The notes: generated by a model not told the origin, from the sequence alone. A DNA stretch of 64,000 nt from Rhodothermales bacterium (GCA_963665975.1 OY762508.1:715067-779066); one strand, 5' to 3'; numbered from the stretch's first letter, positions 5,202-63,200 are shown. Numbers and translations: made by a program.

Positions 5202-6317
5202 ATGGACGGCTCGACTTCCCAAAAGACGCCCCTGTATGTCCGACATGTGGAAATGGGTGCCCGCATGACGGATTTTGCCGGCTTTAGCATGCCCCTACAG
5301 TATTCCAGGATCGTAGAAGAACACCTGGCTGTCCGCAATCTTGCCGGCCTCTTCGATGTCAGCCACATGGGAGAGGTGTTTGTCCAGGGACCGAGGGCCT
5401 TCGCCTTTGTACAAAACCTTGTCACCAATAACGTAGCGAAGCTCGAAGACGGAAAAGCCCTCTACACGGTGATGTGCCGACCTGCCGGGGGCATTATTGA
5501 CGATCTCCTCGTATATCGGCTGCGCGAGGACACATTTATCCTAGTCATCAATGCCTCGAATATCGAAAAAGACTTCGCATGGATGCAGGAGAATAATCCC
5601 ATGGGCGCCAACCTCCACAACACGTCGAAGCACATTGCGCTAATGGCGCTGCAGGGACCACGCACGTTCGATATTGCCGCACAGATCACGGACCTGCCAC
5701 TGCAAAACCTTCCGTATTACCGGTTCCTGCGACCCCCCTCGGGAACCTTCCTGGGATGCGACAAAGTGATTCTGTCTCGCACCGGATATACCGGTGAAAT
5801 CGGCCTCGAAATCTATGTCGAAGCGGAAAGTGCATTGAGAGTATGGGATGCCATATTGGATGCGGGCGCGGATGCCGGCTTGAAGCCGTGCGGCCTTGGG
5901 GCACGCGATACGCTGCGCCTGGAAGCCGGCTTCTGTCTTTACGGACGTGACCTTGACGAGCAGACGAATCCCTATGAAGCACGCCTTGGATGGCTGACTA
6001 AACTGGACAAGGGCCCATTCATCGGCAGAGACGCGCTACGCACGATCAAAGAGCAAGGCACCCGGCGCATACTCGTCGGTTTCGTAATGGAAGGGCGCGG
6101 CATTCCCCGATCCGGGCACCCACTCGAAACAACCACTGGAGAAGAAATCGGAATCGTAACCAGTGGATCGCAGTCGCCGATACTGCAACGCGGTATCGGG
6201 CTCGGTTACGTCCAAAACGATAAGGATCTTTGTACACCCGGAGCAAGCATCCAAGTCCGTGTGCGCAACCGCGCCATCCCCGCCCGCATAGTCAAGCCGC
6301 CCTTCCACAAAAGCTGA
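5202..6317 (+). CDS. gcvT: Glycine cleavage system aminomethyltransferase T
   Basis: LFDVSHMGE, SRTGYTGE, GLGARDTLRLEAG. Confidence 0.96.
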   Translation: MDGSTSQKTPLYVRHVEMGARMTDFAGFSMPLQYSRIVEEHLAVRNLAGLFDVSHMGEVFVQGPRAFAFVQNLVTNNVAKLEDGKALYTVMCRPAGGIIDDLLVYRLREDTFILVINASNIEKDFAWMQENNPMGANLHNTSKHIALMALQGPRTFDIAAQITDLPLQNLPYYRFLRPPSGTFLGCDKVILSRTGYTGEIGLEIYVEAESALRVWDAILDAGADAGLKPCGLGARDTLRLEAGFCLYGRDLDEQTNPYEARLGWLTKLDKGPFIGRDALRTIKEQGTRRILVGFVMEGRGIPRSGHPLETTTGEEIGIVTSGSQSPILQRGIGLGYVQNDKDLCTPGASIQVRVRNRAIPARIVKPPFHKS

Positions 6318-6659
6318 CCACATTGTCAGCCGGATGGTCTGTTGTCAGGAATCATGGGAATTGCTGATCAAGCCATCCAGGCGGATGTTGGGTACAAGAA
6401 ACTGCCACCGGCGTAACAGTAACACCAATTTCGGAGTCAGGAAGGCCGTTTTCCAATGAGGCTCGTGCTGGTCACACCATCCAAATATTGATGCAATAGT
6501 GATCCTGGGGTCATGGTTGATGAAAATGGCTGGCGACAGAATATCCTGTCCGACCAAGGCACTCTATCCGATGCTATCAGCTGATAGACGTGGCACTTAT
6601 ATACCGAAATAACATCAACCCTCAAGAATCCCAACTAGACAAAGAACGGAAAATGTCCG

Positions 6660-9026
6660 TCATTGCCGGGCAACCCCATCTGGCGCACACGTCTTGTATC
6701 CGACTCCGTGCACGTTTAGGATATAGGTCGGTTCGGCCGCGTTATCGCCTAGCTTGTGGCGGAGCTTTTTCACGAATGTACGCACATGCCCTTTGTTGTT
6801 GGCACCTTCGTCGCCCCACAATAGGCTAATCAACTTGTCATAGGTCACTACACTCCCTGCATTAAGCGATAGCAAGCGCAATAGTTTGTACTCGGTGGAG
6901 GTCAAGTGTATCGTGCGGCCCGTGACGGTCACAAGGCGCCGGTCGTAATGAATTTCGAGATCCTTCAATACACAAGAGCCCGGCTCGGCTGACCGTCGCA
7001 GGGCCGCCTTAATTCTCGCCGTAAGCTCAGTGGGAGAAAATGGTTTGACAATGTAGTCGACGGCCCCACTTTCCAAGGCCCGTGCGATAGTCTGGTCCCT
7101 TCCGTAGCCGGATAGAAAAATGACCGGCTGATCGGCCAACTCACGAACATTCTCCATCAATGTGATGCCATCTATCCCAAGCAAAACTAAATCGAGTAGT
7201 ACCAATCCGGGTCTTTTTTCCTTTATGATTCGGGACAGCTCCCGATGGTCGCTGGAAACAATCGGGGAGTAGCCCGCTGAGGTAAGAATGTCCTGAACGT
7301 AGCGAAGCATCCTCAGATCGTCGTCCACTACGAGAATGCGTGTCCGGTTTGCAGTTGATTTTGAGACCTCCTTCGTATTCCGCCTCCATATGTTCTGGCC
7401 ACCAACAATGGATTTTTCAGCTACTGGAACCGTGAACGTGAACCGCGCACCCATACCCACACCAGCACTCTCGGCCCAGATGCGTCCGCCATGCGTCTCG
7501 ACGAGTCCCTTGCAGATGGCAAGCCCGAGACCAAATCCCCTGATTCCATGCTCCGAATTTTTTTGGAAGCCGACGTATTTCTCAAATAAGTGCGGCAGCA
7601 ATTCTGGGGACACGCCCTTGCCTTCGTCCGAGACCGAGATCGCAACGTGCATGTCATCTTGAACCGCGGTCACAACAATAGGGAACCGTGAGGACGAGTT
7701 CTTAGCCGCATTCGAGAATAGATTATTCAGCACTTGGACGATGCGGTGACTGTCGACCATTATGCGAGGCAATTCCGGCTGAAGGTTGATTCGGACGGCA
7801 TGTTGGCTTCCGCCACTCAAGAACAAAGTTCTCGCTCGTTCCACCAGGTCGAACACGTTCCACGGCTCGGGAAATACTGACAACGTACCCGTGCCGATGC
7901 GTCCGGCATCCAGGAGGTCGCTGATCAGGCTTTGCATATGATCGGCCTGCTCGTTGACGATTCGGAAAAACTGGAGCATTTCGTCTCGACCCAACGTCTC
8001 AGAATTTCCCAATACAGCGGCGGATGAACCCTTGATAGAGGTCAGTGGAGCCCGCAACTCGTGGCTTACCATACCGAGGAATTCAGTCCGCGACCGCTCG
8101 AACTCCTCCAGCGGAGCTAAGTCCTGCATGGTGACGATCAGTGAGTCTATGGTACCGTTGGGGGAATGGATCGCCGTGGCGTTGACCAGAATCTTGATTC
8201 TCCGATCGTCGCCGACTGAAAGCTCGACCGTTTCTGCACGCACCGCCTCGAAATTGCCGGAATCGAGTGTCGTAACGAGTTCAGCAAACGTAGTCTCCCG
8301 CCCATCGGACCGCCGGCATGTTATTATTCCTAGCAACTGCTCCTCTGTGTATCCCGGCACCTGTATGCCGTTGATGAGCCGCTGCGCTTCTTGATTGAAC
8401 AATTCCGGATTGCCCGTCCTGGTGTCGAAGACTACTACACCCACAGGCGACGTGTCTATCAGAGCTTCCAGGTCTGCCCGGGCTCGCCGCTCGTTACGAT
8501 GCGCGTGGGCATTGCCAATGACTATCGCCGCCTGCGAAGCAAATATCATCAGAATCTCTTCGTCCTCACTGGTAAATTCTCGCCCTTGCTGCTTGCTACT
8601 TAGAAAAAATAGGCCAACCTGCCGGCCTTGATGACGTATTGGAGTAGCCTGGAAGGCCCCTGAAGGGACCAGGTCCGCTGAAAAGCCCCGCGCACTAATG
8701 TAGGTAGGCAAGTCTGTCAAACGCAGAATCCCAGACAGCTCGCGAAAGTGTTCGAAGAGTCGCAGCCCCTCGGACCAGGCCAGCAGCTGCTGGCGCTCGT
8801 CCTCACTGAAGCCGGACATGACGAAGTCCGCAGCTTTTCCCGTCTCGCCGATGGTCGTAATAACACCGTACCGGGCACCGGTCAACTCGCGGGCATTCTC
8901 CACAATCTCTCGCAAGACAATGTCAAGTTCGAGACTTGCGCTGATGCGCAAAATGGCCGCACACAGCCGGGAAGTACACTGGCATAACGCCTCCCCTGCT
9001 TGCCTTGATTCGTCGAAATGCTTCAT
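6660..9026 (-). CDS. Soluble hybrid sensor kinase/response regulator: GAF-PAS-HisKA-HATPase-REC-OmpR-type winged helix
   Basis: VSHELRAPLTSI H-box, NNLFSNAAK N-box, DEGKG and GFGLGLAI G-boxes, REC (VVDDD...LLDL...KPFS), KdpE/OmpR-like tail LTSTEYKLL...KLRHKLGD...GVGY; no TM segment seen. Start could be 9041 (TTG). Confidence 0.88.
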   Translation of the reverse strand: MKHFDESRQAGEALCQCTSRLCAAILRISASLELDIVLREIVENARELTGARYGVITTIGETGKAADFVMSGFSEDERQQLLAWSEGLRLFEHFRELSGILRLTDLPTYISARGFSADLVPSGAFQATPIRHQGRQVGLFFLSSKQQGREFTSEDEEILMIFASQAAIVIGNAHAHRNERRARADLEALIDTSPVGVVVFDTRTGNPELFNQEAQRLINGIQVPGYTEEQLLGIITCRRSDGRETTFAELVTTLDSGNFEAVRAETVELSVGDDRRIKILVNATAIHSPNGTIDSLIVTMQDLAPLEEFERSRTEFLGMVSHELRAPLTSIKGSSAAVLGNSETLGRDEMLQFFRIVNEQADHMQSLISDLLDAGRIGTGTLSVFPEPWNVFDLVERARTLFLSGGSQHAVRINLQPELPRIMVDSHRIVQVLNNLFSNAAKNSSSRFPIVVTAVQDDMHVAISVSDEGKGVSPELLPHLFEKYVGFQKNSEHGIRGFGLGLAICKGLVETHGGRIWAESAGVGMGARFTFTVPVAEKSIVGGQNIWRRNTKEVSKSTANRTRILVVDDDLRMLRYVQDILTSAGYSPIVSSDHRELSRIIKEKRPGLVLLDLVLLGIDGITLMENVRELADQPVIFLSGYGRDQTIARALESGAVDYIVKPFSPTELTARIKAALRRSAEPGSCVLKDLEIHYDRRLVTVTGRTIHLTSTEYKLLRLLSLNAGSVVTYDKLISLLWGDEGANNKGHVRTFVKKLRHKLGDNAAEPTYILNVHGVGYKTCAPDGVARQ

Positions 9027-9270
9027 GTTCTTCACAGCCAATCGTTGTCCGAAGTTGCCTGTCCGTTGCCGTGGATTATTCGACGATGTCGTTCACCCAA
9101 ACCAAGCGATATTGGTCGCTTGGCATCGATTGACTTGAATACGTGTTCCAAATGAACACGATAATAATACGAATAATTTTCGGACGTCCACGTAAGATAC
9201 ACAATAAATCATGCAATTTGCATCCTAAGGCCTATTCCATTTCGAGGATCAAGTCATACGCAACTCCCGA

Positions 9271-9777
9271 ATGCCTTCTTGGCATGCCCCGGACGGTTAC
9301 TCTTGTGCTAACGCATGCCGGAGAGTATTGCCGTCACGGCTACCGGAGCGCCGCTTTCTGGACCCGAGCCGTCGTAGCGTCGGCACACGAGACGGAGGCT
9401 CCGCAGACGCGGACTCCCTCATTCCAAGGGTTGCCGCCGGAACACACTCCGTAAGCGCTTCCTTTGTCGGTTCTGCCACGTTGACATACACAGACATGCA
9501 CGTCAATCTTGAACCAGCCGACGCCACTGGACTCTGTTACGATCGGAATCAAGACGATCGACATGGAGAACTTCCAGATACGCACCGCCACGAATTTCAA
9601 CGGGGCATTCGCGGCAGCTTCGGGGTAGAAAATATGTATTGCCTGGACGGACTCAACCTGCGCGACACAGTCTCTGGCGGTAGCCTGACGAGCATTAATA
9701 CTACCTCCATCAAAGAAGTGGAAGTGCCGACCGATGGTTGGAACACCGAGTATGGCGGCCATGCCATTGGTCATTAA
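9271..9777 (+). pseudogene. Decayed TonB-dependent receptor N-terminus (carboxypeptidase-regulatory-like domain plus plug fragment)
   Basis: GTHSVSASFVG resembles G.Y.V.ASFVG; IRGS..VENMYCLDGLNLRD...SIKEVEVPTDGWNTEYGG resembles the plug motif IRGG...E..Y.IDG...I.E.EV..GGF.AEYG; no barrel follows. Confidence 0.7.
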
Positions 9778-44502: not shown

Positions 44503-45573
44503 ATGGCTGGTTCGACCAGAGATGTAACGATCAAGCTCACGCCGGAAACGCGCACGACCGTCGTTGACGTGGCGCAGCAGCTGGCCGCCGAGCATGGCGA
44601 GCGGCTTGCATCCTTCAGCAAGCTCCTCTACTGCTCTCACCACACCACGGCAGGATTCCTTGAGCAAAGCCTGTGCGCACGTATCCGGCACAGACGTGAA
44701 TCCGTCGAAGCGCTCGTGCAATCGGCCAAGAAACTCTTTCCTGAAGGCGCGGCCTACTGGCACGATCGCATGGAGATGCGGAGTGAGTTGACTGAAGAGC
44801 AGAAAGTTGTCGAACCTCTCAATGCAGACTCGCACCTGGCGTATATCGGGCTCGGGATGGAGAATTGCGTCACGTATGACAACAATCCCGATGTGCCCGT
44901 CTATTTCATAGATCTGGATGGCGTATACCAGGGAACGCACCGCCTGCGCAAGGCGACTGTCGTCGGCTTCAATTCGTCCGAAACCGTCATGGAGTGCACC
45001 CTCCGGATTCCCGTGTCGCCGCGTGTTGTGGATTCCGTAAACGTCTTTGACCCGCGAAGCGGCGTTGCGGAGCAATTGAATGAACTGCTACGGATACACA
45101 AGGTGCAACGGGGAAAGATCGAGCTCTCTCTGCCACCGACCGAGCAACACGCCGGGCTCACGATGAACGAATACGAAACGCTCCTGATGAAGCACGACCT
45201 CATGGAAGTGCTGCGCAATCCGTTTCGCTTCATGGCTCACGAAGCATCGAGTATCGTGCACAACCCGAAAGCGCTCCCTCAGATGGCAAAGGGGTACATC
45301 AAGTACGACCTGGTGCGCGTGGTTGATCAGGTAATCAAATCGCTGCATCTGAATGAATCCCTTGTCGAACGGGTGTTCGATCGGATCGCCGCAGTGTCAA
45401 ACGCCAGGCGTCTGCGCCTCAAGCGTAGTGTGACCATGCTAATCAATACGAAAGCGCAGGACCGCGAAGGCAGCATTGTCCGCGGCACCTACCAGAGCCC
45501 AATCCTGCTTCAGTGGCGACGAGCGACCGATGAGCTCCGAACGGTCAATGTCCGGCTGATCCGTCTGGAATAG
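44503..45573 (+). CDS. Uncharacterised protein with apparently duplicated YjbQ/UPF0047-like domain
   Basis: HHTTAG...HD...NADSHL in the first half; HAGLTMNE...HDL...GTYQSPILLQW...RTVNV in the second half. Confidence 0.55.
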   Translation: MAGSTRDVTIKLTPETRTTVVDVAQQLAAEHGERLASFSKLLYCSHHTTAGFLEQSLCARIRHRRESVEALVQSAKKLFPEGAAYWHDRMEMRSELTEEQKVVEPLNADSHLAYIGLGMENCVTYDNNPDVPVYFIDLDGVYQGTHRLRKATVVGFNSSETVMECTLRIPVSPRVVDSVNVFDPRSGVAEQLNELLRIHKVQRGKIELSLPPTEQHAGLTMNEYETLLMKHDLMEVLRNPFRFMAHEASSIVHNPKALPQMAKGYIKYDLVRVVDQVIKSLHLNESLVERVFDRIAAVSNARRLRLKRSVTMLINTKAQDREGSIVRGTYQSPILLQWRRATDELRTVNVRLIRLE

Positions 45574-45948
45574 GCCGCCTCACGCGCACAAGGCGGCAGG
45601 GACTCTCATTGCAAGCGAAACGCATGAGCGTTTGTAGAAAACGGGCAGGGCCTGGAGCATTGCGTCAGGACCAAGCGTGCGAGATGCCTTCCAATGCAGG
45701 CTGGTCGCTGCCCCTGGTGAACGAAGATCAATTGCGCCCGGCTGGTGGAGAGTGCCTGCGCTGCAGCGCGCTCGATCATGCCTCATCTTTTTCGGCTAAT
45801 TTCTCCGCCAGCACGTTAGACTTGAGCTAAGGCTCTACGTGCCGATCCCTGCACATCATTCCATATCCATCGTGGCCAGTCACAGGTTTATGGCTGCACG
45901 GCCATTGAATCGTGTTGTATAATGCGCGGCAACTTATGATATCCAGGC

Positions 45949-47367
45949 CTAATCCAACCACAGGTCATCGCATTTCACTGCTGGACTTTCCGAACGACCG
46001 GCTTCTGGAGTCGTCGCGAATCGACTTGACGGTGATGTGGTAGTTAGTGAATTCCAACGCGTGAGATTTGTGCGCCGCAAAGGACGCCTCACAGAATCTT
46101 CGGAAATGCCGGCTCGTAATGCTGCGAGCAATCCAGCCGCCTCCAGGTAATTGCCTGCCCGATAAAACTGACCATCCATCCATGGAAGCGCACTTAAATC
46201 GTTCTTCATAAGATTATTGTTCGCGACCTCTATGACGGTCATGCCTTGCTCCAATGCAGCAAGGGTTGGCAATCCAAGACATCCTTCAGGAATCACAAGG
46301 CACGAAATCTGCTCCGCTGTCACTACGCTGTCTTCCCGCATCGCCTCTCTATCCGTGACGATTCGCGGACTCTGTCTGAGCCCCTTGAGAGTGCATTGAA
46401 GGAACGTTGATGAAACGGCCTCCGCCGCCATTCGCGGATCCACGATACCGGGATCTGCTTCGGCAATTAAACGTGACTCGAACATTGGAGAATGTGCCGT
46501 TGGTACATCGAAAACGCTTGAGAGGGCATGTGTAAGCATCGCTTCCACTCCTCCCCATGGATTTACCATGATCCCCTCAGCGTCAAAATAGAGTTGATGA
46601 TATTCTGGCGGAACATCTATTACCGTTGACAGCGACACTGCATCATACGTACCTGAGCGCTCATCCAACAGCCTGAAGATTTCTTCAGCTCCTTCGATTC
46701 GACCAGCAGCGCGCCCGGAAGGAGAGTAATCTGCAAATAGTTTGATGGGAGGGTCAACAGCAACGACTTCAGCGCAGTTGAGTCCATACGCAGCTCTGGC
46801 CCCGCTGACCGCATTTACGGCAGCATTTACGAATAACTTGTCCGCGTGCGCATCAATGACCACAAGTACTCTGTTGGATCGAACCGGAAGAAGCCCGACA
46901 GTGCCCATCAGGAGTCGAGTTACAACACTCCCCTCAACATAAAGGCTATTCGCAGGCATCTCATTTACATCAGACGCATTTACAACATTTGGGTGTAACA
47001 CCAAGGTATCGGATACTTCAGCGAGAAGGCGAGCCACCGGTCCCGCATCTCCAGCGTGTCCGCCCAGGTCTGCTCCAATTCCTGTCGGAATCACTAAGAC
47101 GACATTAAACGCTCTACTATCGTGAACCAATCGGCGGCGAAAATCAAAAAGAGCTGCACCAGGCTTGTCAGTAGTGCTGAGACCGGCTGCCATCGTCGCA
47201 AACTCGCAATGATAGTATGACCTTCCGGTGGCTGTCACAGCAAAACGAACCGGAATCCTGTTTTCGAAGGGATGACCAACAAGAGTCTGCTGAAAATGAC
47301 TCAACAGCTCCTTGTGATTGGTGACAATCGGGATATCGAGTTGTTGTTCGATTAGTGATTGATTCAT
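45949..47367 (-). CDS. DUF3326-like protein with ~85-aa N-terminal extension
   Basis: VIPTGIGADLGGHAGDA.P.ARLLA..SD.LVLHPNVVNA, YVEG, NPWGGVEAMLTH, AHSP, VDPRMAAEAVS, LKGL..SP, NYLEAAG. Confidence 0.82.
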   Translation of the reverse strand: MNQSLIEQQLDIPIVTNHKELLSHFQQTLVGHPFENRIPVRFAVTATGRSYYHCEFATMAAGLSTTDKPGAALFDFRRRLVHDSRAFNVVLVIPTGIGADLGGHAGDAGPVARLLAEVSDTLVLHPNVVNASDVNEMPANSLYVEGSVVTRLLMGTVGLLPVRSNRVLVVIDAHADKLFVNAAVNAVSGARAAYGLNCAEVVAVDPPIKLFADYSPSGRAAGRIEGAEEIFRLLDERSGTYDAVSLSTVIDVPPEYHQLYFDAEGIMVNPWGGVEAMLTHALSSVFDVPTAHSPMFESRLIAEADPGIVDPRMAAEAVSSTFLQCTLKGLRQSPRIVTDREAMREDSVVTAEQISCLVIPEGCLGLPTLAALEQGMTVIEVANNNLMKNDLSALPWMDGQFYRAGNYLEAAGLLAALRAGISEDSVRRPLRRTNLTRWNSLTTTSPSSRFATTPEAGRSESPAVKCDDLWLD

Positions 47368-47406
47368 TTGAGCTGTACCCCGCTGCAATTCGATGATGTG
47401 TCCTGG

Positions 47407-47796
47407 TTAGCGTCGGGTGACAACAGTCGAGGTCCAGTCCGACGAGTTGAACCAACGCGCCGTGAATCGAGCTGCCGCATCCGTGTCAAAAGCTTTGCAA
47501 GAAAAGATGTTCACATAGACTGTCTCCATCAGGTCGAGTGTATGAACCACGATCGTGCTCGTCAGAATGAACTGGACTGCACTTGTGCCCTTTGTCCTGG
47601 GGTCGGTCTGCTGTTCCCCCGCGGGTACGCCAACGTCATCCCAAAAGTGCAAATCACAAGGCTCCATGTCTATCAATTCACAAAGCTCACTGAAGAACGC
47701 CTCAACACTGTCTCGCGTAAAGCGGCCGACATTGCAATTGTGAAGGTCCAGAATCAGCTCAAGCCCGTAGGGAGCGTTTTCAGTATTCGTTGCCAT
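47407..47796 (-). CDS. Pyruvoyl-dependent S-adenosylmethionine decarboxylase-like proenzyme (SpeD family)
   Basis: YGLELILDLHNC, GTSAVQFILTSTIVVHT, VYVNIFSCKAFD, C-terminal beta strand ending in RR; alternative TTG start at 47817. Confidence 0.82.
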   Translation of the reverse strand: MATNTENAPYGLELILDLHNCNVGRFTRDSVEAFFSELCELIDMEPCDLHFWDDVGVPAGEQQTDPRTKGTSAVQFILTSTIVVHTLDLMETVYVNIFSCKAFDTDAAARFTARWFNSSDWTSTVVTRR

Positions 47797-47809
47797 AATA
47801 TCGCCAGAT

Positions 47810-48478
47810 CTACTCAAACAAGACGAGCAGGTCAGGATGAATGTTGCGGTGAGACAGCCATTTGATCATGCTTCCAAACTCCCACGATGTCTTCTCCTGT
47901 AATTCTACTACTATTCTTTCAGCCCGCGGAGCGTTTGGATCTTCGTTGAGAATGTCGATGAGTAGCAGAATTATGCGCGTGAGCTCCGTACGATTCTCCA
48001 CGAGAGCGAGTCTGTTCAGATTAGCATGATCAATTGTGGTTTCACCTCGATGGGTTTCTGGCCATCGCTTTAACCCTCCTTCCCCGAATATGTAATTTAG
48101 GTGCTCTGAGATCGCGTCCTGAGCACTGTCCAGAATCTGGTGACATTCGTCCCATTTGCTACCCTTCGCATGATTGCACTTTTGGCAGGCGAGATGCAAA
48201 TTGTCCCAATCAAACGCGTACTCCGGCTGCACACTTTTGGGTCGCCTATGCTCTATATGAGAGAATGCGACTCCGATTATCCTGGATTCGCAATAGCAAC
48301 ACAGTCCGCGATACATTTTCTCCAAGGCCTCCCGGATATCGACCTTCCTGTATCGGTTAATACACTTCTTGATCTGTCTTGATTTCCCTGATGACAACGC
48401 AGCCATCAGGTCCCGCTTCCAGATTTCAGCGTTTTGGCGAAGCGATTCGGGCATTGCTGGACGGGTCACGCAGCGCAT
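47810..48478 (-). CDS. HNH endonuclease, Septu PtuB / retron-associated HNH-like
   Basis: LCCYCES...IEHRRPKS...FDWDNLHLACQKCNHAKG, TI...LNR..L..R. Confidence 0.88.
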   Translation of the reverse strand: MRCVTRPAMPESLRQNAEIWKRDLMAALSSGKSRQIKKCINRYRKVDIREALEKMYRGLCCYCESRIIGVAFSHIEHRRPKSVQPEYAFDWDNLHLACQKCNHAKGSKWDECHQILDSAQDAISEHLNYIFGEGGLKRWPETHRGETTIDHANLNRLALVENRTELTRIILLLIDILNEDPNAPRAERIVVELQEKTSWEFGSMIKWLSHRNIHPDLLVLFE

Positions 48479-49702
48479 CTAGGAATTGTTTTGTGAGGAC
48501 TTTCGAGCAAACTGAACAAGATTCTCGAGCTCTGTTGCAAGCTGAACTGGATCGGTATCAGGCATGTTGCCCATCTGCTCCCGAAGACGTTTGAAGTCTT
48601 CTTCTTCCTCGTCCGAGAATTTGCGGCCGTGCAGGCGCTTGTTATCCAATTGCTGGAATTCTAACAATCTCTTTGCAAATGCTTCCGCTCGGGAGGTTGG
48701 TAGCCCCATCCTTATATAAACCTCCTCGGCGCGCCAGCCAAAGGGAAACACCTCTTCATAGTCACCATCATTCAGTTTATACACTTTAATATTCTTGCAG
48801 CCCGACGCCACGAGTGGCGAATGAGTGGTTGCGATAAATTGTACGCCGGGAAAGCTCTCCGTTAGCAATTGCATGATATTGCGCTGCCAACGGGGATGGA
48901 GATGCTGCTCTATCTCATCTATAAGTACTATTCCATCAATATCGGTGAGATCGGATGGGCCGCTGAGATACCACCACGACAAGAGATCCAACACCCAAGT
49001 GACTGTAGAATGATACCCGTCTCCCACTGAGGACAAGGGGTAATGGTCCTGTTTATTCTTGATCTCTATCGCGTTATCTGCTAACTGGACACTGTCGTCG
49101 GATTCAAGTTGTAGGATACGTCGAAGAAGATCCGTTAGGGTACCGAGAATATTCGCCGAAGCAGGCTCCTTTCCGCGGGACGCCACGAGCCTGCGCATGA
49201 CCAACTCAGGGTTCTGCAATGGCCGGTCGTTTACAAATAGGGGATGCAGGGCATCCACGGCAAGGTAGTAGTCGTAATCTTCGGTGCCATGTACGCGTAT
49301 GCCAGGCCCATAACCGGTAGTAAAGATTCGGTCCCATGGAAACTTGTCCGGTTTAAGCGGTAACCGTTGTCCGTTTTCTTGAAGCTGATTCAATTCTTGG
49401 TCTACGCTTTCGAACCGGTCCAGCGATCTGATCGTGGTTTCAGTCTGAAAACATCCAGTACGATCCTCCAAGTCGACCTCGATCGTTCCCTGCTCGCTTC
49501 CTCTTCGAACTGACTCGCCATAAAGATCCCGAAACAAAGCTGACGCGCTCGATTCGTCGCAGAGGCCCATTGCTAGACTGCGGAGGACGGTTGACTTACC
49601 GTCGCCGTTGTCGCCTACCAATAGCGCGGATTCCCCCTTAAGATCGAGCGTCAGTTCCTCGAAGCAGCGGATATGCTTTAAACATAGCCTCGTGACTTTC
49701 AT
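48479..49702 (-). CDS. ABC-type (AAA_21/AAA_15-like) ATPase, Septu PtuA-like
   Basis: L.LKHIRCFE, Walker A GDNGDGKST, signature-like LSSVGDGY, Walker B IVLIDEIEQHLHPRWQ, H-loop FIATTHSP. Confidence 0.9.
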   Translation of the reverse strand: MKVTRLCLKHIRCFEELTLDLKGESALLVGDNGDGKSTVLRSLAMGLCDESSASALFRDLYGESVRRGSEQGTIEVDLEDRTGCFQTETTIRSLDRFESVDQELNQLQENGQRLPLKPDKFPWDRIFTTGYGPGIRVHGTEDYDYYLAVDALHPLFVNDRPLQNPELVMRRLVASRGKEPASANILGTLTDLLRRILQLESDDSVQLADNAIEIKNKQDHYPLSSVGDGYHSTVTWVLDLLSWWYLSGPSDLTDIDGIVLIDEIEQHLHPRWQRNIMQLLTESFPGVQFIATTHSPLVASGCKNIKVYKLNDGDYEEVFPFGWRAEEVYIRMGLPTSRAEAFAKRLLEFQQLDNKRLHGRKFSDEEEEDFKRLREQMGNMPDTDPVQLATELENLVQFARKSSQNNS

Positions 49703-50031
49703 GCACCGTTCTAAATTGAGTGTTATCGATCCGGAAATGGCTCGCCTTGACGGAAGGCAAGCGCACTTAATGGGAGCAAGTTATCAAACAATTGTACAAC
49801 ATGGGCCCAATAGGTCCAGCAAATACGGACAGGTGGCGAATATTTTCCTCATACTTTTCCAATTCTGAAGCCTTCTGAACGTCATGTAGGACCCTGAATC
49901 TGATAGCGCCGGGAAAAGCATAACTCGCCGTGGAATTCGTGACCAGAACCGGCAAGGGCCTGTATCCTCCTATCTATGCGGTTTCTTATAGGGAGACTCG
50001 AAGCGGACAACTTCAGGCTGAGTACGCACTG

Positions 50032-50808
50032 TCAAATAAGGCTGCGCGACTGCCCGCCATCCACATTCAGGCATGCGCCTGTGACAAGGCTTGCCCGCTC
50101 GGAGAGAAGGAAGGTGGCCACATCGGCAATTTCTTCCGCCGCCCCGAAGCGTCCAACCGGCAGATTGGCCTGCACGAAGGCTCGCATTCCTTCCGGATCC
50201 GATTGGACGCGCCGATCCCACGACCCGCCCGGAAATCGAATCGATCCCGGCGCGATGCAATTGACGCGGATGCCTTCGCCGGCAAGCTCAATGGCCATGA
50301 TCTTGGCCGCGCTTATAAGACCTGACTTGGTCGCATTGTAGATCGAGAGTCCCTTTCCACCTGCCTCACGCCCAAAAATCGACGCCACGAACAGGATTGC
50401 TCCGCCGTGTGAGGCGCGCATGTGCGGGATCGCCGCGCGACTGCATCGTAGGTGCACCTTCAGATTCAATTCCAGGATTGCATCCCAGTCCTCCTCTGTT
50501 GTCTCGGCAAACGGCTTGCGGCGATTGCCCCCCACGTTGTTTACCAGGGCATCGATGCGTCCAAATGTCCCCGCTGCACTTTCGATAAGGCGTTCCGCAT
50601 TTCCGGTGCCCGTGATATCCAGCGGCAGCGCCAGCACTTCCGCGCCACAGGCTCTGATTTCGTCGGCTACGTGCTGCAGCCGATCCTCATTGCGGGCGCA
50701 TATCGCCAGCAGGCACCCCTCCTTTGCCAGTCCCAGGGCGATGCTCCGGCCGAGTCCGCGACTCGCACCGGTCACCACCGCTACCTTTCCATGTAACCCA
50801 AGATCCAT
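50032..50808 (-). CDS. SDR family oxidoreductase
   Basis: TGASRGLG, VNNVG, YNATK, IRVNCIAPG, VDGG. Confidence 0.93.
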   Translation of the reverse strand: MDLGLHGKVAVVTGASRGLGRSIALGLAKEGCLLAICARNEDRLQHVADEIRACGAEVLALPLDITGTGNAERLIESAAGTFGRIDALVNNVGGNRRKPFAETTEEDWDAILELNLKVHLRCSRAAIPHMRASHGGAILFVASIFGREAGGKGLSIYNATKSGLISAAKIMAIELAGEGIRVNCIAPGSIRFPGGSWDRRVQSDPEGMRAFVQANLPVGRFGAAEEIADVATFLLSERASLVTGACLNVDGGQSRSLI

Positions 50809-60216: not shown

Positions 60217-63200
60217 ATGACACAAATTACGTTAGACACAGATCAACTGAAAGATCTGTTTTCTGAGGACAATCCAATGCGGTTGCTGTTGGAGGAAGTT
60301 CTCAATACGGGTGCGTTAGGCTAACTGACGGCAGTACAGCGGGTGCAAGTCCCGCGTTACAAAGGTTTAACCAATCATGTATCTCCGCGAGCCGTGCATG
60401 GTCACTCATGAGGGTGGCGATGAAGCGTCGGCAGCGGTGTGCGTGGCCAGGGCTATTGAGCATCGAAAGAGACAATATCTGGGGTGCCGAGGTTCTCGGT
60501 ATGGCCAAAGGCAACACCTGTTACTCCGTGTTGGTGAGGAGGAACAGGGCCCCACGGTGTCAAAGAACCCAGGGACGCGCATACGTACTACGTCGGGACC
60601 TGAGAGATCTTCACACTGCCTTGCTGTCGTGCAAGGCCGCAAAGGGAAGGAGGCAACTCTAAAGCCGGAGACGCACAGTGTGAAGAAGTCAGATGGCGCC
60701 ATACGAGCTATGAACGCTGCGAACAAAGGGGAACTATCCCCGGCGGAGTGGCGGGAGCAAAGGGCGCCAGCCAAGGGGAAACCGGAATGTCCGCACACGC
60801 ACCAAGCGCAGGATTGGGCGCGCGTGTCACAGGGGATCGACCGGTTACGGCAATTCGTGAAACGGAAACCGAAGGAGCGTTTCACCACGCTACTGCACCA
60901 CATCAACGTGGACTCCCTTAAGGCCGCTTTCTACGCGCTTAAGCGCGATGCGGCAGCCGGGGTGGACGGCGTGACGTGGGAGGCGTATGCGGAAGGACTG
61001 GAAAGCCGTCTGGCAGACCTGTGCGACCGTGTACACAGCGGAGCATACCGGGCGACGCCGTCACGGCGAGTAGAGATACCCAAGCCGGATAGTGGTACAC
61101 GACCGCTCGGCATCGCGGCACTGGAAGACAAGATCGTCCAGAAGGCGATGGTGAAGTGCATCCTGACGCCTATTTACGAGGCGGAGTTTCACGGGTTCAG
61201 CTATGGGTTTCGGCCGGGGCGTGGCGCACATGATGCGTTAGACGCACTGGCCTATGTGATTGAGCATCGGAAGGTCAGCTTCATAGTGGACGCCGACATT
61301 CGCAAGTTCTTTGACATGGTGGATCAGGAGTGGTTACTCCGCTTTCTGAAGCATCGTATTGGAGACAAGCGCGTGATACGTCTAATCACCAAGTGGTTGA
61401 AAGCGGGCGTGATGGAGGGACATCAATGGCAGAAGAGTACGAGAGGCACACCACAGGGTGCCGTCATTTCTCCGATACTCGCCAATGTCTATCTCCATTA
61501 TGTGCTGGATCTCTGGTTTCAGGCGTGGCGCTCAACACAACAGGTGCAGGGAGAGGCATACATCATCCGCTATGCGGATGATTTCGTGGTGGGATTCCAG
61601 TACAAACGGGAGGCAAGACGCTTTCTGCGACAATTACGGGAGAGGCTCGAGAAGTTCGGGCTTAGCCTACACCCCGGCAAGACGCGCCTGTTGGAATTTG
61701 GGCGCTATGCCGAAAACAACCGCAGGAAACGGGGCTTGGGCCGCCCGGAGACGTTCGACTTTCTGGGTTTTACACATTATTGCCGTAAAGATCGGAAGGG
61801 ACGCTTCGGCCTTGGACGCAAGCCCATTGCCAAACGGATGGCCCGCTTCTTGAAGCGGGTGAAGGAAACGTTGATCCGACGCATGCATGAGGATGTGCAG
61901 GAAACGGGGCGCTGGCTGGGAAGGGTACTCAACGGATGGCTGAACTACTACGCCGTCCCGACGAGCTTTCCTTACCTGAAGCGCTGCTATCGACGCCTTA
62001 ACTGGATATGGTGCAGAGTGATGCGGCGGCGCTCACAAAAGGATCGAACCTCATGGGAGCGTCTAGCACGGTTGACCACGAAACACTGGCCTGCACTCGC
62101 CATCCGACACCCATGGCCGGACGCACGATTTACCGTCACGCACGCCGGTGCAACCCGAGGCAAGAGCCGGATGCGTTAGCGCGCACGTCCGGATCTGTGA
62201 GGGGGGCCCGGGGCAATCCGGGCCTCTACTCGATTGCTGGAAGCCGAGATGACCGAGCACCTGGGCGCTAAGCGCTACGAGCGCACAGAGAAGCGCCAGG
62301 CGTACCGCAATGGCACGCGTCAGCGGCGCTTGAGCACGCGTGTTGGAACGCTCACGTTGCGGGTGCCACAGTGCCGCGACGGATCGTTTTCGACAGAGTT
62401 GTTTAGCCGTTATCAGCGGTCCGAACAAGCGTTGGTGTTGTCCTTGATGGAGATGGTGCTTCAGGGTGTGTCTACGCGCAAGGTGACGAAGATCACTGAA
62501 GAGCTTTGTGGGACGAATTTTTCGAAGAGTACGGTCAGTCGGCTGTGTGGGGAGCTCGACGCCCGTGTGCACGCGTGGAAAGAGCGCGATCTGAGTCAGA
62601 CGCGATATCCGTTCGTACTTGTGGATGCCCTGGTGATCAAAGTGCGGCGTCAGGGGGCGGTGCGACCCACGAGCCTGCTGATTGCGATTGGGATCAATGA
62701 GACCGGCTACAGGGAGATCCTGGGGGTCGCATTGGGCGATCAGGAGTCCGAAGCGAGTTGGTCCGCTTTGTTTGGGAGTTTGAAAGAGCGGGGACTGAAG
62801 GAGGTGGACATGATTGTTTCCGATGCCAATACGGGACTGGTCAAGGCAGCCGAGCGCTATTTCCAGGGCGCGATGTGGCAACGATGCCAGGTGCATCTGA
62901 TGCGCAATGTGCTGGGCGCCACTCCCAAGGCGCATCGGGCCGAGATGATGGAGCAGACGCGTCGGCTCTTTCGAAGTGAAAGCAAGAAAGAAGCGCGAGA
63001 GATATTCCGCAGTATGGCAGCCTACTTCGAAGGCAAGGCGGACAAGGCGCTCGATATCCTGGAGGACGGTCTGGAGGAGGCGACGCAGGTGTTAGTCTTA
63101 CCCGCTCGGTACCGTCGCCGCTTACGTACCACGAACATGGTGGAGCGCTTGAACGAGGAGATTCGTCGTCGGGAGCGGGTCATACGGATCTTTCCGAACG

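Follow-up and report, generated by a model that had tools for sequence, protein, structure and literature searches.

What are two putative small-molecule enzymes doing in one operon with a Septu-type ATPase and its nuclease? Septu, the PtuA/PtuB (PtuAB) pair, is among the commonest anti-phage systems, and the question is raised by a locus within a 64,000-nucleotide stretch of DNA from a Rhodothermales bacterium (GCA_963665975.1 OY762508.1:715067-779066), the whole of which we refer to as the window. Its minus strand carries four intact, co-oriented genes that encode, in this order, a PtuA-like ATPase, a PtuB-like HNH nuclease, a SpeD-like decarboxylase and a protein of the DUF3326 family (Table 1). 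A first-pass annotation, made from the sequence alone, had proposed these genes as a candidate defence system; calls of open reading frames (ORFs) confirmed the four genes, their orientation and their junctions, and matches to PADLOC and Pfam models bore out the family assignments. Our reading of the locus, for which we regard the case as evenly balanced overall, is that of a horizontally acquired operon in which a dedicated Septu-type PtuAB lineage is linked in function to a small-molecule module of two enzymes (the decarboxylase and DUF3326) and which acts against phages through a polyamine-controlled nuclease.

The four-gene operon and its recurrence

The ATPase and nuclease genes meet with zero gap, the ptuA stop codon (48479) abutting the ptuB ATG (48478), and 13 nt separate the ptuB stop from the ATG of the SpeD-like gene at 47796; the alternative TTG start at 47817 would overlap ptuB. 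From the stop codon of the SpeD-like gene (47407) it is 18 nt to the TTG of the DUF3326 gene (47388) and 39 nt to its ATG (47367). PtuA matched many PADLOC PtuA1 models, with E values from 7.5e-45 (PDLC00271) to 1e-43, and its Walker A residue K36, Walker B residues D262/E263 and H269 were invariant in 18 module-linked homologues (alignment A2). PtuB matched the PADLOC PtuB1 model PDLC00337 over residues 1-208 of 222 (E 7.2e-50) as well as the Pfam HNH family (E 9e-8), and C60, C63, H77, N93, C98, C101 and N102 were invariant in 19 homologues (alignment A6). The active-site residues of the two enzymes that follow are invariant too, as described below, so that this holds for all four proteins. 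Both PtuA (113.6 bits against a cut-off of 500) and PtuB (61.8 against 150) stayed below the cut-offs of the retron-Ec78 equivalog models of NCBIfam.

By its own criterion, the proposal of the first-pass annotation would have been refuted if this gene order were confined to the window. The order PtuA-PtuB-decarboxylase-DUF3326 recurs widely, so that this test does not refute it. The loci that we compared were the best matches to the window's proteins and not random genomes, and their ORF starts came from a simple caller, so that intergenic distances in them are approximate. When genome contigs were scanned with a DUF3326 profile (alignment A1) and the best 80 loci were taken, PtuA and PtuB stood beside the enzyme pair in 25 of the 80, from about a dozen phyla. 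The record titles of these PtuAB-linked loci name Rhodothermales, Vicinamibacterales, Binatia, Terriglobia, Actinomycetes and Phycisphaerae/Planctomycetota, and further Neomarinimicrobiota, Bacteroidota, Nitrospinaceae, Bdellovibrionales, Dehalococcoidales and Alphaproteobacteria.

The association was also seen from the side of the ATPase. Scanning metagenomes with PtuA alone (alignment A2) gave 80 loci, 36 of which were informative, that is, had at least 2.5 kb of sequence downstream, and a decarboxylase gene together with DUF3326 was present in 25 of the 36. Sorted by identity to the window's PtuA, the module was linked in 12/12 loci at 40% or more, in 1/2 at 37-40%, in 7/11 at 35-37% and in 5/11 below 35%. 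Even in the shorter loci, a piece of the module was still visible in 19 of 44. When 102 PtuA sequences were placed on a tree, the rows linked to the module made up large, deep clades, and seven of the ten rows that had informative flanks but no module fell in a single clade of 14 rows.

Among 40 relatives of the Rhodothermales bacterium, PtuA and DUF3326 were found in the same six genomes, in matching copy numbers and at neighbouring coordinates, and neither was found in the other 34; the system was present in 6 of 24 genomes of the window's family and in none of 16 from other families of the order. The spacing is operon-like: the median gap is about 10 nt between the stop of ptuB and the projected start of the decarboxylase gene (n = 46; 37 at no more than 100 nt) and about 4 nt between the decarboxylase stop and the DUF3326 start (n = 71). 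Adjacency was kept when the order was rearranged (the enzymes precede PtuAB in L008, L027 and L029, and in L096 the two halves converge), and also through repeated exchanges of the SpeD-like gene for another decarboxylase. We conclude that the four genes very probably form a functional unit.

A fifth gene, of the MfnB (4-HFC-P synthase) family, is often the next gene upstream of ptuA, in the same direction or divergent (gap about 140 nt). It was present in 6 of the 25 PtuAB-linked genome loci against none of the 55 without PtuAB, and in 11 of 24 metagenome module loci with enough upstream sequence (the loci that carry it include L007, L012-L014, L017, L034, L082, L085, L088, L090, L091, L101, L108 and L113-L116). 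Because the gene occurs in some loci and was not found in the window's genome, the system comes in a four-gene and a five-gene form.

Several loci showed arrangements of their own. Two genomes of Rhodothermales hold second, more divergent copies of the system (L018, L037), in which 3-4 kb with ORFs matching type I restriction specificity subunits lie between PtuB and the SpeD-like gene. The module is duplicated in tandem in L111 (1684-7366), where the order is PtuA, PtuB, DUF3326, SpeD-like, DUF3326. Downstream of DUF3326 in L088, L091, L108 and L151 there is a conserved ORF of 273 amino acids (aa) with a sub-threshold match to nucleoside 2-deoxyribosyltransferase (E 2e-4). In L216, from one of the relatives (G013:C1:1093500-1105000, ~6056-9668), an insertion of ~2.3 kb separates the part of ptuA for residues 76-407 from that for residues 1-133, but leaves the genes for PtuB, the SpeD-like protein and DUF3326 intact; no Rfam match was found in this locus. 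Finally, one 380-aa sequence on a contig of 2.9 kb (P0125) joins a PtuB-like part (48-206) to a SpeD-like part (252-379), and is either a natural fusion or an artefact of a frameshift or of assembly.

The four genes of the window were acquired horizontally as one unit, as the first-pass annotation had supposed, because the insertion site is empty in three relatives (G008, G002 and G004, where the two flanking core genes, hyp356 and SDR, lie only 10-60 nt apart) and because the G+C content (GC) of the island is uniformly low. The island has a GC of 51.1% compared with 57.8% in the rest of the window, which is below that of all 253 equally long windows elsewhere (minimum 53.7%, standard deviation 1.8%), and the four genes range from 49.5 to 52.3%. 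The GC contrast that had been guessed from a few lines of sequence is therefore real, but it is smaller than estimated, since xseA has a GC of 64.4% and not 70%. At the same hyp356/SDR junction, the relative G007 carries a different insert of 2.5 kb (L181, G007:C46, 3910-6447) that encodes a 573-aa PKD-domain protein and a 195-aa ORF, and the junction looks like a variable spot. Relatives that bear the system have it at other chromosomal positions. Repeats flanking the island were short and chance-like, with nothing resembling attachment sites; no tRNA gene was found in the window and no integrase with the island.

The possibility that an RNA or a reverse transcriptase (RT) takes part in the operon was also considered. 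Three other Rhodothermales loci (L002, L003, L004) have alignable sequence upstream of ptuA, and the predicted consensus fold of this stretch is weak (-5.9 kcal/mol). Rfam models matched nothing in 45300-50300 at E values up to 1, and a scan for promoters and terminators gave counts no higher than those of shuffled sequences. With no Rfam match and a weak fold, we rejected a retron-like or riboswitch-like RNA at the operon. The statement of the first-pass annotation that no RT is linked holds: the sole RT of the window (60377-62179, plus strand) lies 10.7 kb from the operon and is that of a group II intron (RF02005), and it was rejected as a partner of PtuAB. In the genome, the RVT_1 profile gave 13 matches, several with near-identical scores, indicating a multi-copy intron family.

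Table 1 Positions of the operon, the island and other features in the window
Feature	Positions	Strand	Basis or remark
PtuA-like ABC-type ATPase, 407 aa	48479-49702	-	PADLOC PtuA models, Pfam AAA_21 and AAA_15
PtuB-like HNH nuclease, 222 aa	47810-48478	-	PADLOC PDLC00337, Pfam HNH
SpeD-like pyruvoyl-type decarboxylase, 129 aa from ATG	47407-47796	-	Pfam AdoMet_dc; alternative start TTG 47817
Long-form DUF3326 protein, 472 aa from ATG	45949-47367	-	PF11805; alternative start TTG 47388
Inserted island, 4458 bp	45574-50031		Low GC and empty site in relatives
hyp356, conserved core hypothetical gene	44503-45573	+	Island flank
SDR (short-chain dehydrogenase) gene	50032-50808	-	Other island flank
Upstream non-coding stretch, candidate promoter/5' leader of the operon	49703-49830	-	Aligns with Rhodothermales loci
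Group II intron with RT ORF	60346-62179	+	Rfam RF02005 at 60346-60569, 159 bits; RT 60377-62179, 600 aa

Proposed chemistry of the enzyme pair

The SpeD-like protein belongs to the family of S-adenosylmethionine (SAM) decarboxylases (AdoMetDC), as it matched Pfam AdoMet_dc (PF02675) with 47.4 bits (cut-off 25, E 2.7e-12). Its residues S80, H85 and C100 were invariant in 25 homologues and, in a weak profile match (E 0.06), line up with the Ser that forms the pyruvoyl group in Thermotoga AdoMetDC (1vr7, 1tlu) and with the catalytic His and Cys of that enzyme; a search of PDB with the single sequence gave no match. The cleavage site is Thr-Ser, a change from the canonical Glu-Ser, and the score against the SAM-decarboxylase equivalog TIGR03330 (17.7 bits) was below the cut-off of 75.65. 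The gene is the sole AdoMet_dc gene of the genome (3.93 Mb, 97% complete). The window had been noted to contain no spermidine synthase, and this extends to the whole 3.93 Mb genome, in which PF01564 had 0 matches; deoxyhypusine-synthase-type enzymes and nspC were likewise not found in the genome. One protein with a SpeD-like domain fused to GNAT was also observed (P0133).

The DUF3326 protein matched PF11805 over almost the entire profile (295.6 bits, E 5.8e-88, profile positions 2-336 of 337). Its gene is single-copy in the genome, its homologues are found in many phyla at 53-85% identity, and the motif P-T-G-x-G-x-x-x-G-G-H-x-G-D (P94-D107) was kept across 84 sequences (alignment A3). When the DUF3326 profile was compared with PDB sequences, only chance-level matches were obtained (best E 0.19). 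A search of the protein Atlas with a homologue (P0020) returned DUF3326 clusters only, and nothing after the family was excluded.

A decarboxylase adjoins DUF3326 in 77 of the 80 genome loci, and this decarboxylase is SpeD-like in 46 and a pyridoxal-phosphate (PLP) enzyme in 31. The PLP enzyme matched the NCBIfam model for nspC, carboxynorspermidine decarboxylase, with E values of 1e-82 to 1e-89, which is below the equivalog cut-off but far exceeds its match to lysA. Such an NspC-like enzyme replaces the SpeD-like one in 4 of the 25 PtuAB-linked genome loci and in 10 of the 67 module-linked rows of the PtuA tree, on which the two kinds of decarboxylase have been swapped several times. NspC-like PLP decarboxylases act on carboxy-polyamines, not on SAM. 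The aminocarboxypropyl group of a carboxylated secondary-amine intermediate resembles that of SAM, and this likeness would explain how a member of the SpeD family came to be recruited.

Fusions of the family also point to amine chemistry. DUF3326 is joined to the NspC-like enzyme in P0122 (831 aa, 12 member sequences), to adenylation and carrier domains in P0123, and to an amine-type N-methyltransferase and a SET domain in P0121. A preprint on the polyamine pavettamine reports that formation of its intermediate N-(5-aminopentyl)pentane-1,5-diamine requires PavA, with its PLP decarboxylase domain, as well as the DUF3326 protein PavB, and the authors remark on a Rossmann-like fold of PavB (bioRxiv 10.64898/2026.06.12.731819).

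Because the NspC-like enzyme can take the place of the SpeD-like one and is also found fused to DUF3326, and because a triamine requires PavB, the pair resembles a module for polyamine synthesis more than a sensor of SAM. Judging from gene context, fusions and one genetic study, its product is probably an amine or a polyamine. We infer from the context that DUF3326 is the amine-forming partner of the decarboxylase: it would form the C-N bond of a carboxylated secondary amine, probably with NAD(P)H, and the decarboxylase, whether pyruvoyl or PLP, would then strip off the carboxyl group to give a triamine-type polyamine. In terms of the established pathway, the context predicts that DUF3326 is a non-homologous stand-in for carboxy(nor)spermidine dehydrogenase, and the pyruvoyl SpeD-like protein one for NspC.

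Possible coupling of the module to PtuAB

How would such a module serve a Septu-type nuclease? The relatives of this PtuA that lack the module give some idea of the setting. We scanned eight extended PtuA ORFs from loci in which the module was not seen (four of these loci were informative and four too short downstream to judge). Five of the eight carry an N-terminal TIR_2 domain (L122, L136, L153, L155, L158), preceded by LRR-Roc-COR in L122 and combined with COR alone in L155 and with DUF4062 in L158; the remaining three have, respectively, a STAND-like NTPase domain, a cold-shock domain and no additional domain. A PtuB match follows PtuA in four of the TIR_2-fusion loci (L122, L136, L155, L158) and not in L153, and the TIR_2-fused ATPases may be a Septu variant of their own. 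Fusions with TIR, ROCO and STAND parts, as carried by the module-less relatives, are hallmark architectures of conflict systems; they fit an immune role and place this PtuA branch among immune proteins whose accessory parts are interchangeable. Such a setting agrees with the patchy distribution of the system, its transfer across phyla and its insertion into a variable junction. By analogy, through homology to Septu and the immune-type fusions of sister PtuA proteins, a role of the operon in defence seems reasonably likely.

Within this role, the PtuAB nuclease would be restrained or tuned by the polyamine of the module as its ligand, whereas in retron type I-A this part falls to the RT and its multicopy single-stranded DNA (msDNA). 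Upon infection the pool of free polyamine would change, for instance through phage DNA packaging or through polyamine enzymes borne by the phage, and the change would release PtuAB. That it is specifically the product that restrains PtuAB is a tentative suggestion on our part. Going further, a pool of a specific triamine, kept up by the operon's own enzymes, might silence PtuAB, phage DNA packaging or some other phage interference with polyamines might lower the free pool so that the nuclease fires, and the enzyme pairs carried by phages might top the pool up as a counter-defence, besides serving packaging; in this detailed form the scheme is speculative and we think it unlikely.

Several observations weigh against our reading. 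The enzyme pair occurs without PtuAB in 55 of the 80 genome loci. In 13 loci a protein of ~400 aa with 4-5 hydrophobic segments, which belongs to no Pfam or NCBIfam family, is encoded directly upstream of the pair (L006, L009, L023-L025, L027, L030, L038, L039, L042, L044, L050, L064; L027 alone holds both this protein and PtuAB), and in 11 loci of Alphaproteobacteria the pair is preceded by a glutathionylspermidine (GSP)-synthase-like gene with DUF350 and DUF1190, a neighbour that again points to amine or polyamine chemistry. The module was also found on 31 viral contigs in the scan with the DUF3326 alignment (L185-L215), none with PtuA or PtuB. The SpeD-like gene stands beside a short-form DUF3326 (~330 aa) in 29 of the 31, and matches to PHROGs identified genuine phages, in which the pair is embedded among head and packaging genes: in L195 (2660-7031) it separates the genes for the large terminase and the portal protein, and elsewhere it is found directly after the portal gene in L191, a few genes after it in L203, before a tail-fibre gene in L201 and before a head-morphogenesis gene in L194. 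Most of the invariant residues are present in the phage proteins as well, with Ser80, His85 and Cys100 in 26/26. A tblastn search of GenBank phage records and PLSDB plasmids gave no match for either protein, and the phage copies of the pair were seen in uncultured viral contigs only. Being so often alone, and present in phages that lack PtuAB, the module must have a function of its own.

The two halves do not diverge together either. Across 39 linked loci, the distances of PtuA and DUF3326 were not correlated (Mantel rho 0.04, p 0.25), whereas those of PtuA and PtuB were (rho 0.37, p 0.001), and on the DUF3326 tree no fewer than 9-15 changes are required to account for the linkage to PtuAB. 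Mean pairwise identity was 55% for DUF3326, 37% for PtuA and 29% for PtuB. The absence of co-divergence and the repeated changes of linkage suggest that partners have been exchanged, which argues against a tight protein-protein fit. Nor is the locus of the window in an obvious defence island, as it is surrounded by housekeeping genes, namely xseA, the core hypothetical gene and the SDR gene. In 38 system loci, PADLOC models were run, with no control set, on 134 neighbour ORFs drawn at random from 202 eligible ones (150-900 aa, system genes excluded); four matched type I restriction specificity subunits, and little else was matched.

The dependence is thus asymmetric: the PtuAB lineage is nearly always accompanied by the module, and the module is often alone. 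Together with the exchange of partners, this asymmetry fits a coupling through the product better than a co-evolving protein interface. It is at the same time the best argument for the view that the module is an ordinary mobile polyamine operon, beside which PtuAB, an independent Septu or addiction-type module with no biochemical cross-talk, has settled repeatedly or which it helps to stabilise as an island. The other neighbours of the module where PtuAB is missing, namely the membrane protein and the GSP-synthase-like set, the much stronger conservation of DUF3326 than of PtuA and PtuB and the absent co-divergence of PtuA and DUF3326 speak for such a passenger, and the genome, which has neither spermidine synthase nor deoxyhypusine-synthase-type enzymes nor nspC, might just obtain a polyamine from the island. 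We nevertheless consider a passenger unlikely, since the association is near-obligatory when seen from PtuA (each of the 12 close homologues has the module, as do 25 of the 36 loci in all), PtuA and DUF3326 coincide exactly among the relatives (both in all six carrier genomes, neither in the other 34), and the operon-like spacing holds across phyla, with adjacency surviving rearrangements and decarboxylase swaps. In addition, PtuAB has no integrase that could explain a site-specific landing beside the enzymes, and the MfnB-like gene is limited to loci with PtuAB.

If the genes do work together, the roles could also be reversed, so that the module is the antiviral arm: an unusual polyamine would disturb DNA condensation, packaging or translation of the phage, or a precursor would be drained, and PtuAB would be the sensor and switch or a second effector. 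The N-terminal TIR domains of sister PtuA proteins, which are likewise small-molecule enzymes, would suit this idea, as would the phage pairs among terminase, portal and head genes, which tie the product to packaging, and the conservation of all enzyme residues, which implies that the product is made. However, most genomes, and phages too, have these enzymes without PtuAB and with their invariant residues unchanged, so that the product is probably a normal, useful polyamine and not a poison, and the loci show no sign of regulation of the enzymes by PtuA. We regard this arrangement as improbable.

The first-pass annotation had suggested that the two enzymes may make or consume a SAM-derived metabolite or modification; on this reading the SpeD-like protein would use SAM, and the system would sense SAM depletion, for example by phage SAM lyases, or mark self. 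Membership of the AdoMet_dc family with the pyruvoyl Ser, the His and the Cys kept is consistent with SAM, and the missing spermidine synthase leaves decarboxylated SAM without its ordinary use. This idea has lost ground through the NspC-like enzyme that takes the place of the SpeD-like one in PtuAB-linked loci, through the Thr-Ser site, and through the occurrence of the pair without PtuAB in most genome loci and in phages. The low TIGR03330 score also speaks against it, and SpeD homologues of similar size are reported to have become ornithine or arginine decarboxylases (PMC10407285, PMC9992855). A system built on SAM therefore appears quite improbable.

The least probable explanation is a modification-restriction system, in which an aminoalkyl group from the module would mark host DNA or tRNA, PtuAB would cut what is unmarked and the phage copies would be counter-measures: the head and packaging modules in which these copies lie, the reported cleavage of tRNA-Tyr or nicking of DNA by PtuAB relatives (PMC12819146) and the genes for type I restriction specificity subunits that separate PtuAB from the enzymes in two Rhodothermales loci would agree with it, but the cluster has no conserved transferase, glycosylase or nucleic-acid-binding component, the same enzymes occur in free-standing metabolic contexts, and the fusions indicate small-molecule chemistry.

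If instead PtuAB is held in check by the polyamine that the module would make, polyamine gating would be seen for the first time in a bacterial immune system, and DUF3326 would gain a function. The locus raises the questions of whether a polyamine controls an immune nuclease, which reaction DUF3326 carries out, and why phages place the pair in their packaging modules.

Comparison with known systems

The enzymes have relatives in polyamine metabolism. Neofunctionalised SpeD homologues from phages and bacteria are pyruvoyl ornithine or arginine decarboxylases (PMC9992855, PMC10407285). Like the protein of the window, they are AdoMetDC-family proteins of about 117-130 aa that have no spermidine synthase partner, lie near polyamine genes and also occur in phages; those described in the consulted parts of these papers differ in that they cluster with HSS, SpeY, SpeE or carboxyspermidine dehydrogenase/decarboxylase (CASDH/CASDC). 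The pathway of carboxynorspermidine dehydrogenase and decarboxylase (CANSDH/CANSDC, the latter being NspC) is similar in being a two-gene module with a terminal decarboxylase, and the NspC-like enzyme in 31 of 80 loci and its fusion with DUF3326 add to the likeness. This likeness to CANSDH is in gene context only, as DUF3326 has no sequence relation to it (its sole family is Pfam PF11805, with no significant PDB relative by profile), and the decarboxylase of the window differs from CANSDC in being a pyruvoyl SpeD-like protein whose reaction we propose by inference.

The PavABC system for pavettamine comes close in composition, as a DUF3326 protein and a protein with a decarboxylase domain are both needed there for a symmetric triamine intermediate (10.64898/2026.06.12.731819). 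PavA is, however, a large fusion of Rieske and PLP parts and PavC a hydroxylase, and the parts of the preprint consulted describe no nuclease. HEC-07 (bioRxiv 10.1101/2024.01.29.577857) was considered as a possible instance of the same system and rejected, since what is described there is an AdoMetDC-like domain fused to a RelE-type RNase.

With Septu itself, type I in PADLOC, the operon shares an ABC-type ATPase followed by an HNH nuclease, abutting codons, strong PADLOC matches for PtuA and PtuB, and conserved catalytic motifs. It differs in that canonical Septu is a stand-alone pair, whereas the present lineage almost always comes with the decarboxylase and DUF3326, and often with the MfnB-like gene upstream. 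Neither the SpeD-like nor the DUF3326 protein matched any PADLOC model, and because of this annotation pipelines would call a plain Septu and miss the enzymes. In the consulted parts of the PADLOC survey, the genes described as associated with Septu are those of the RT-linked type II only (PMC8565338). The first-pass annotation knew of no described system of such composition, and this stands, as a literature search, which did not cover supplementary tables, found no published description of PtuAB with SpeD-like or DUF3326 genes. As far as this search shows, the combination is a new one, a Septu lineage with a dedicated small-molecule module.

To our knowledge, the only accessory-controlled form of Septu so far is retron type I-A (Ec78/Eco7; Septu type II in PADLOC). 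It resembles the present operon in that PtuAB has been put to use by an accessory module which the operon itself encodes. In retron Ec78, the complex of RT, noncoding RNA (ncRNA) and msDNA is reported to sequester the toxic PtuAB (PMC12819146; PMC8565338). Here, by contrast, the operon has no RT or ncRNA, the accessory is a pair of small-molecule enzymes, and the Ec78 equivalog cut-offs are not reached. Next to the retron, the operon of the window represents a second accessory-linked Septu lineage, one that is widespread, spanning about a dozen phyla of mostly uncultured bacteria.

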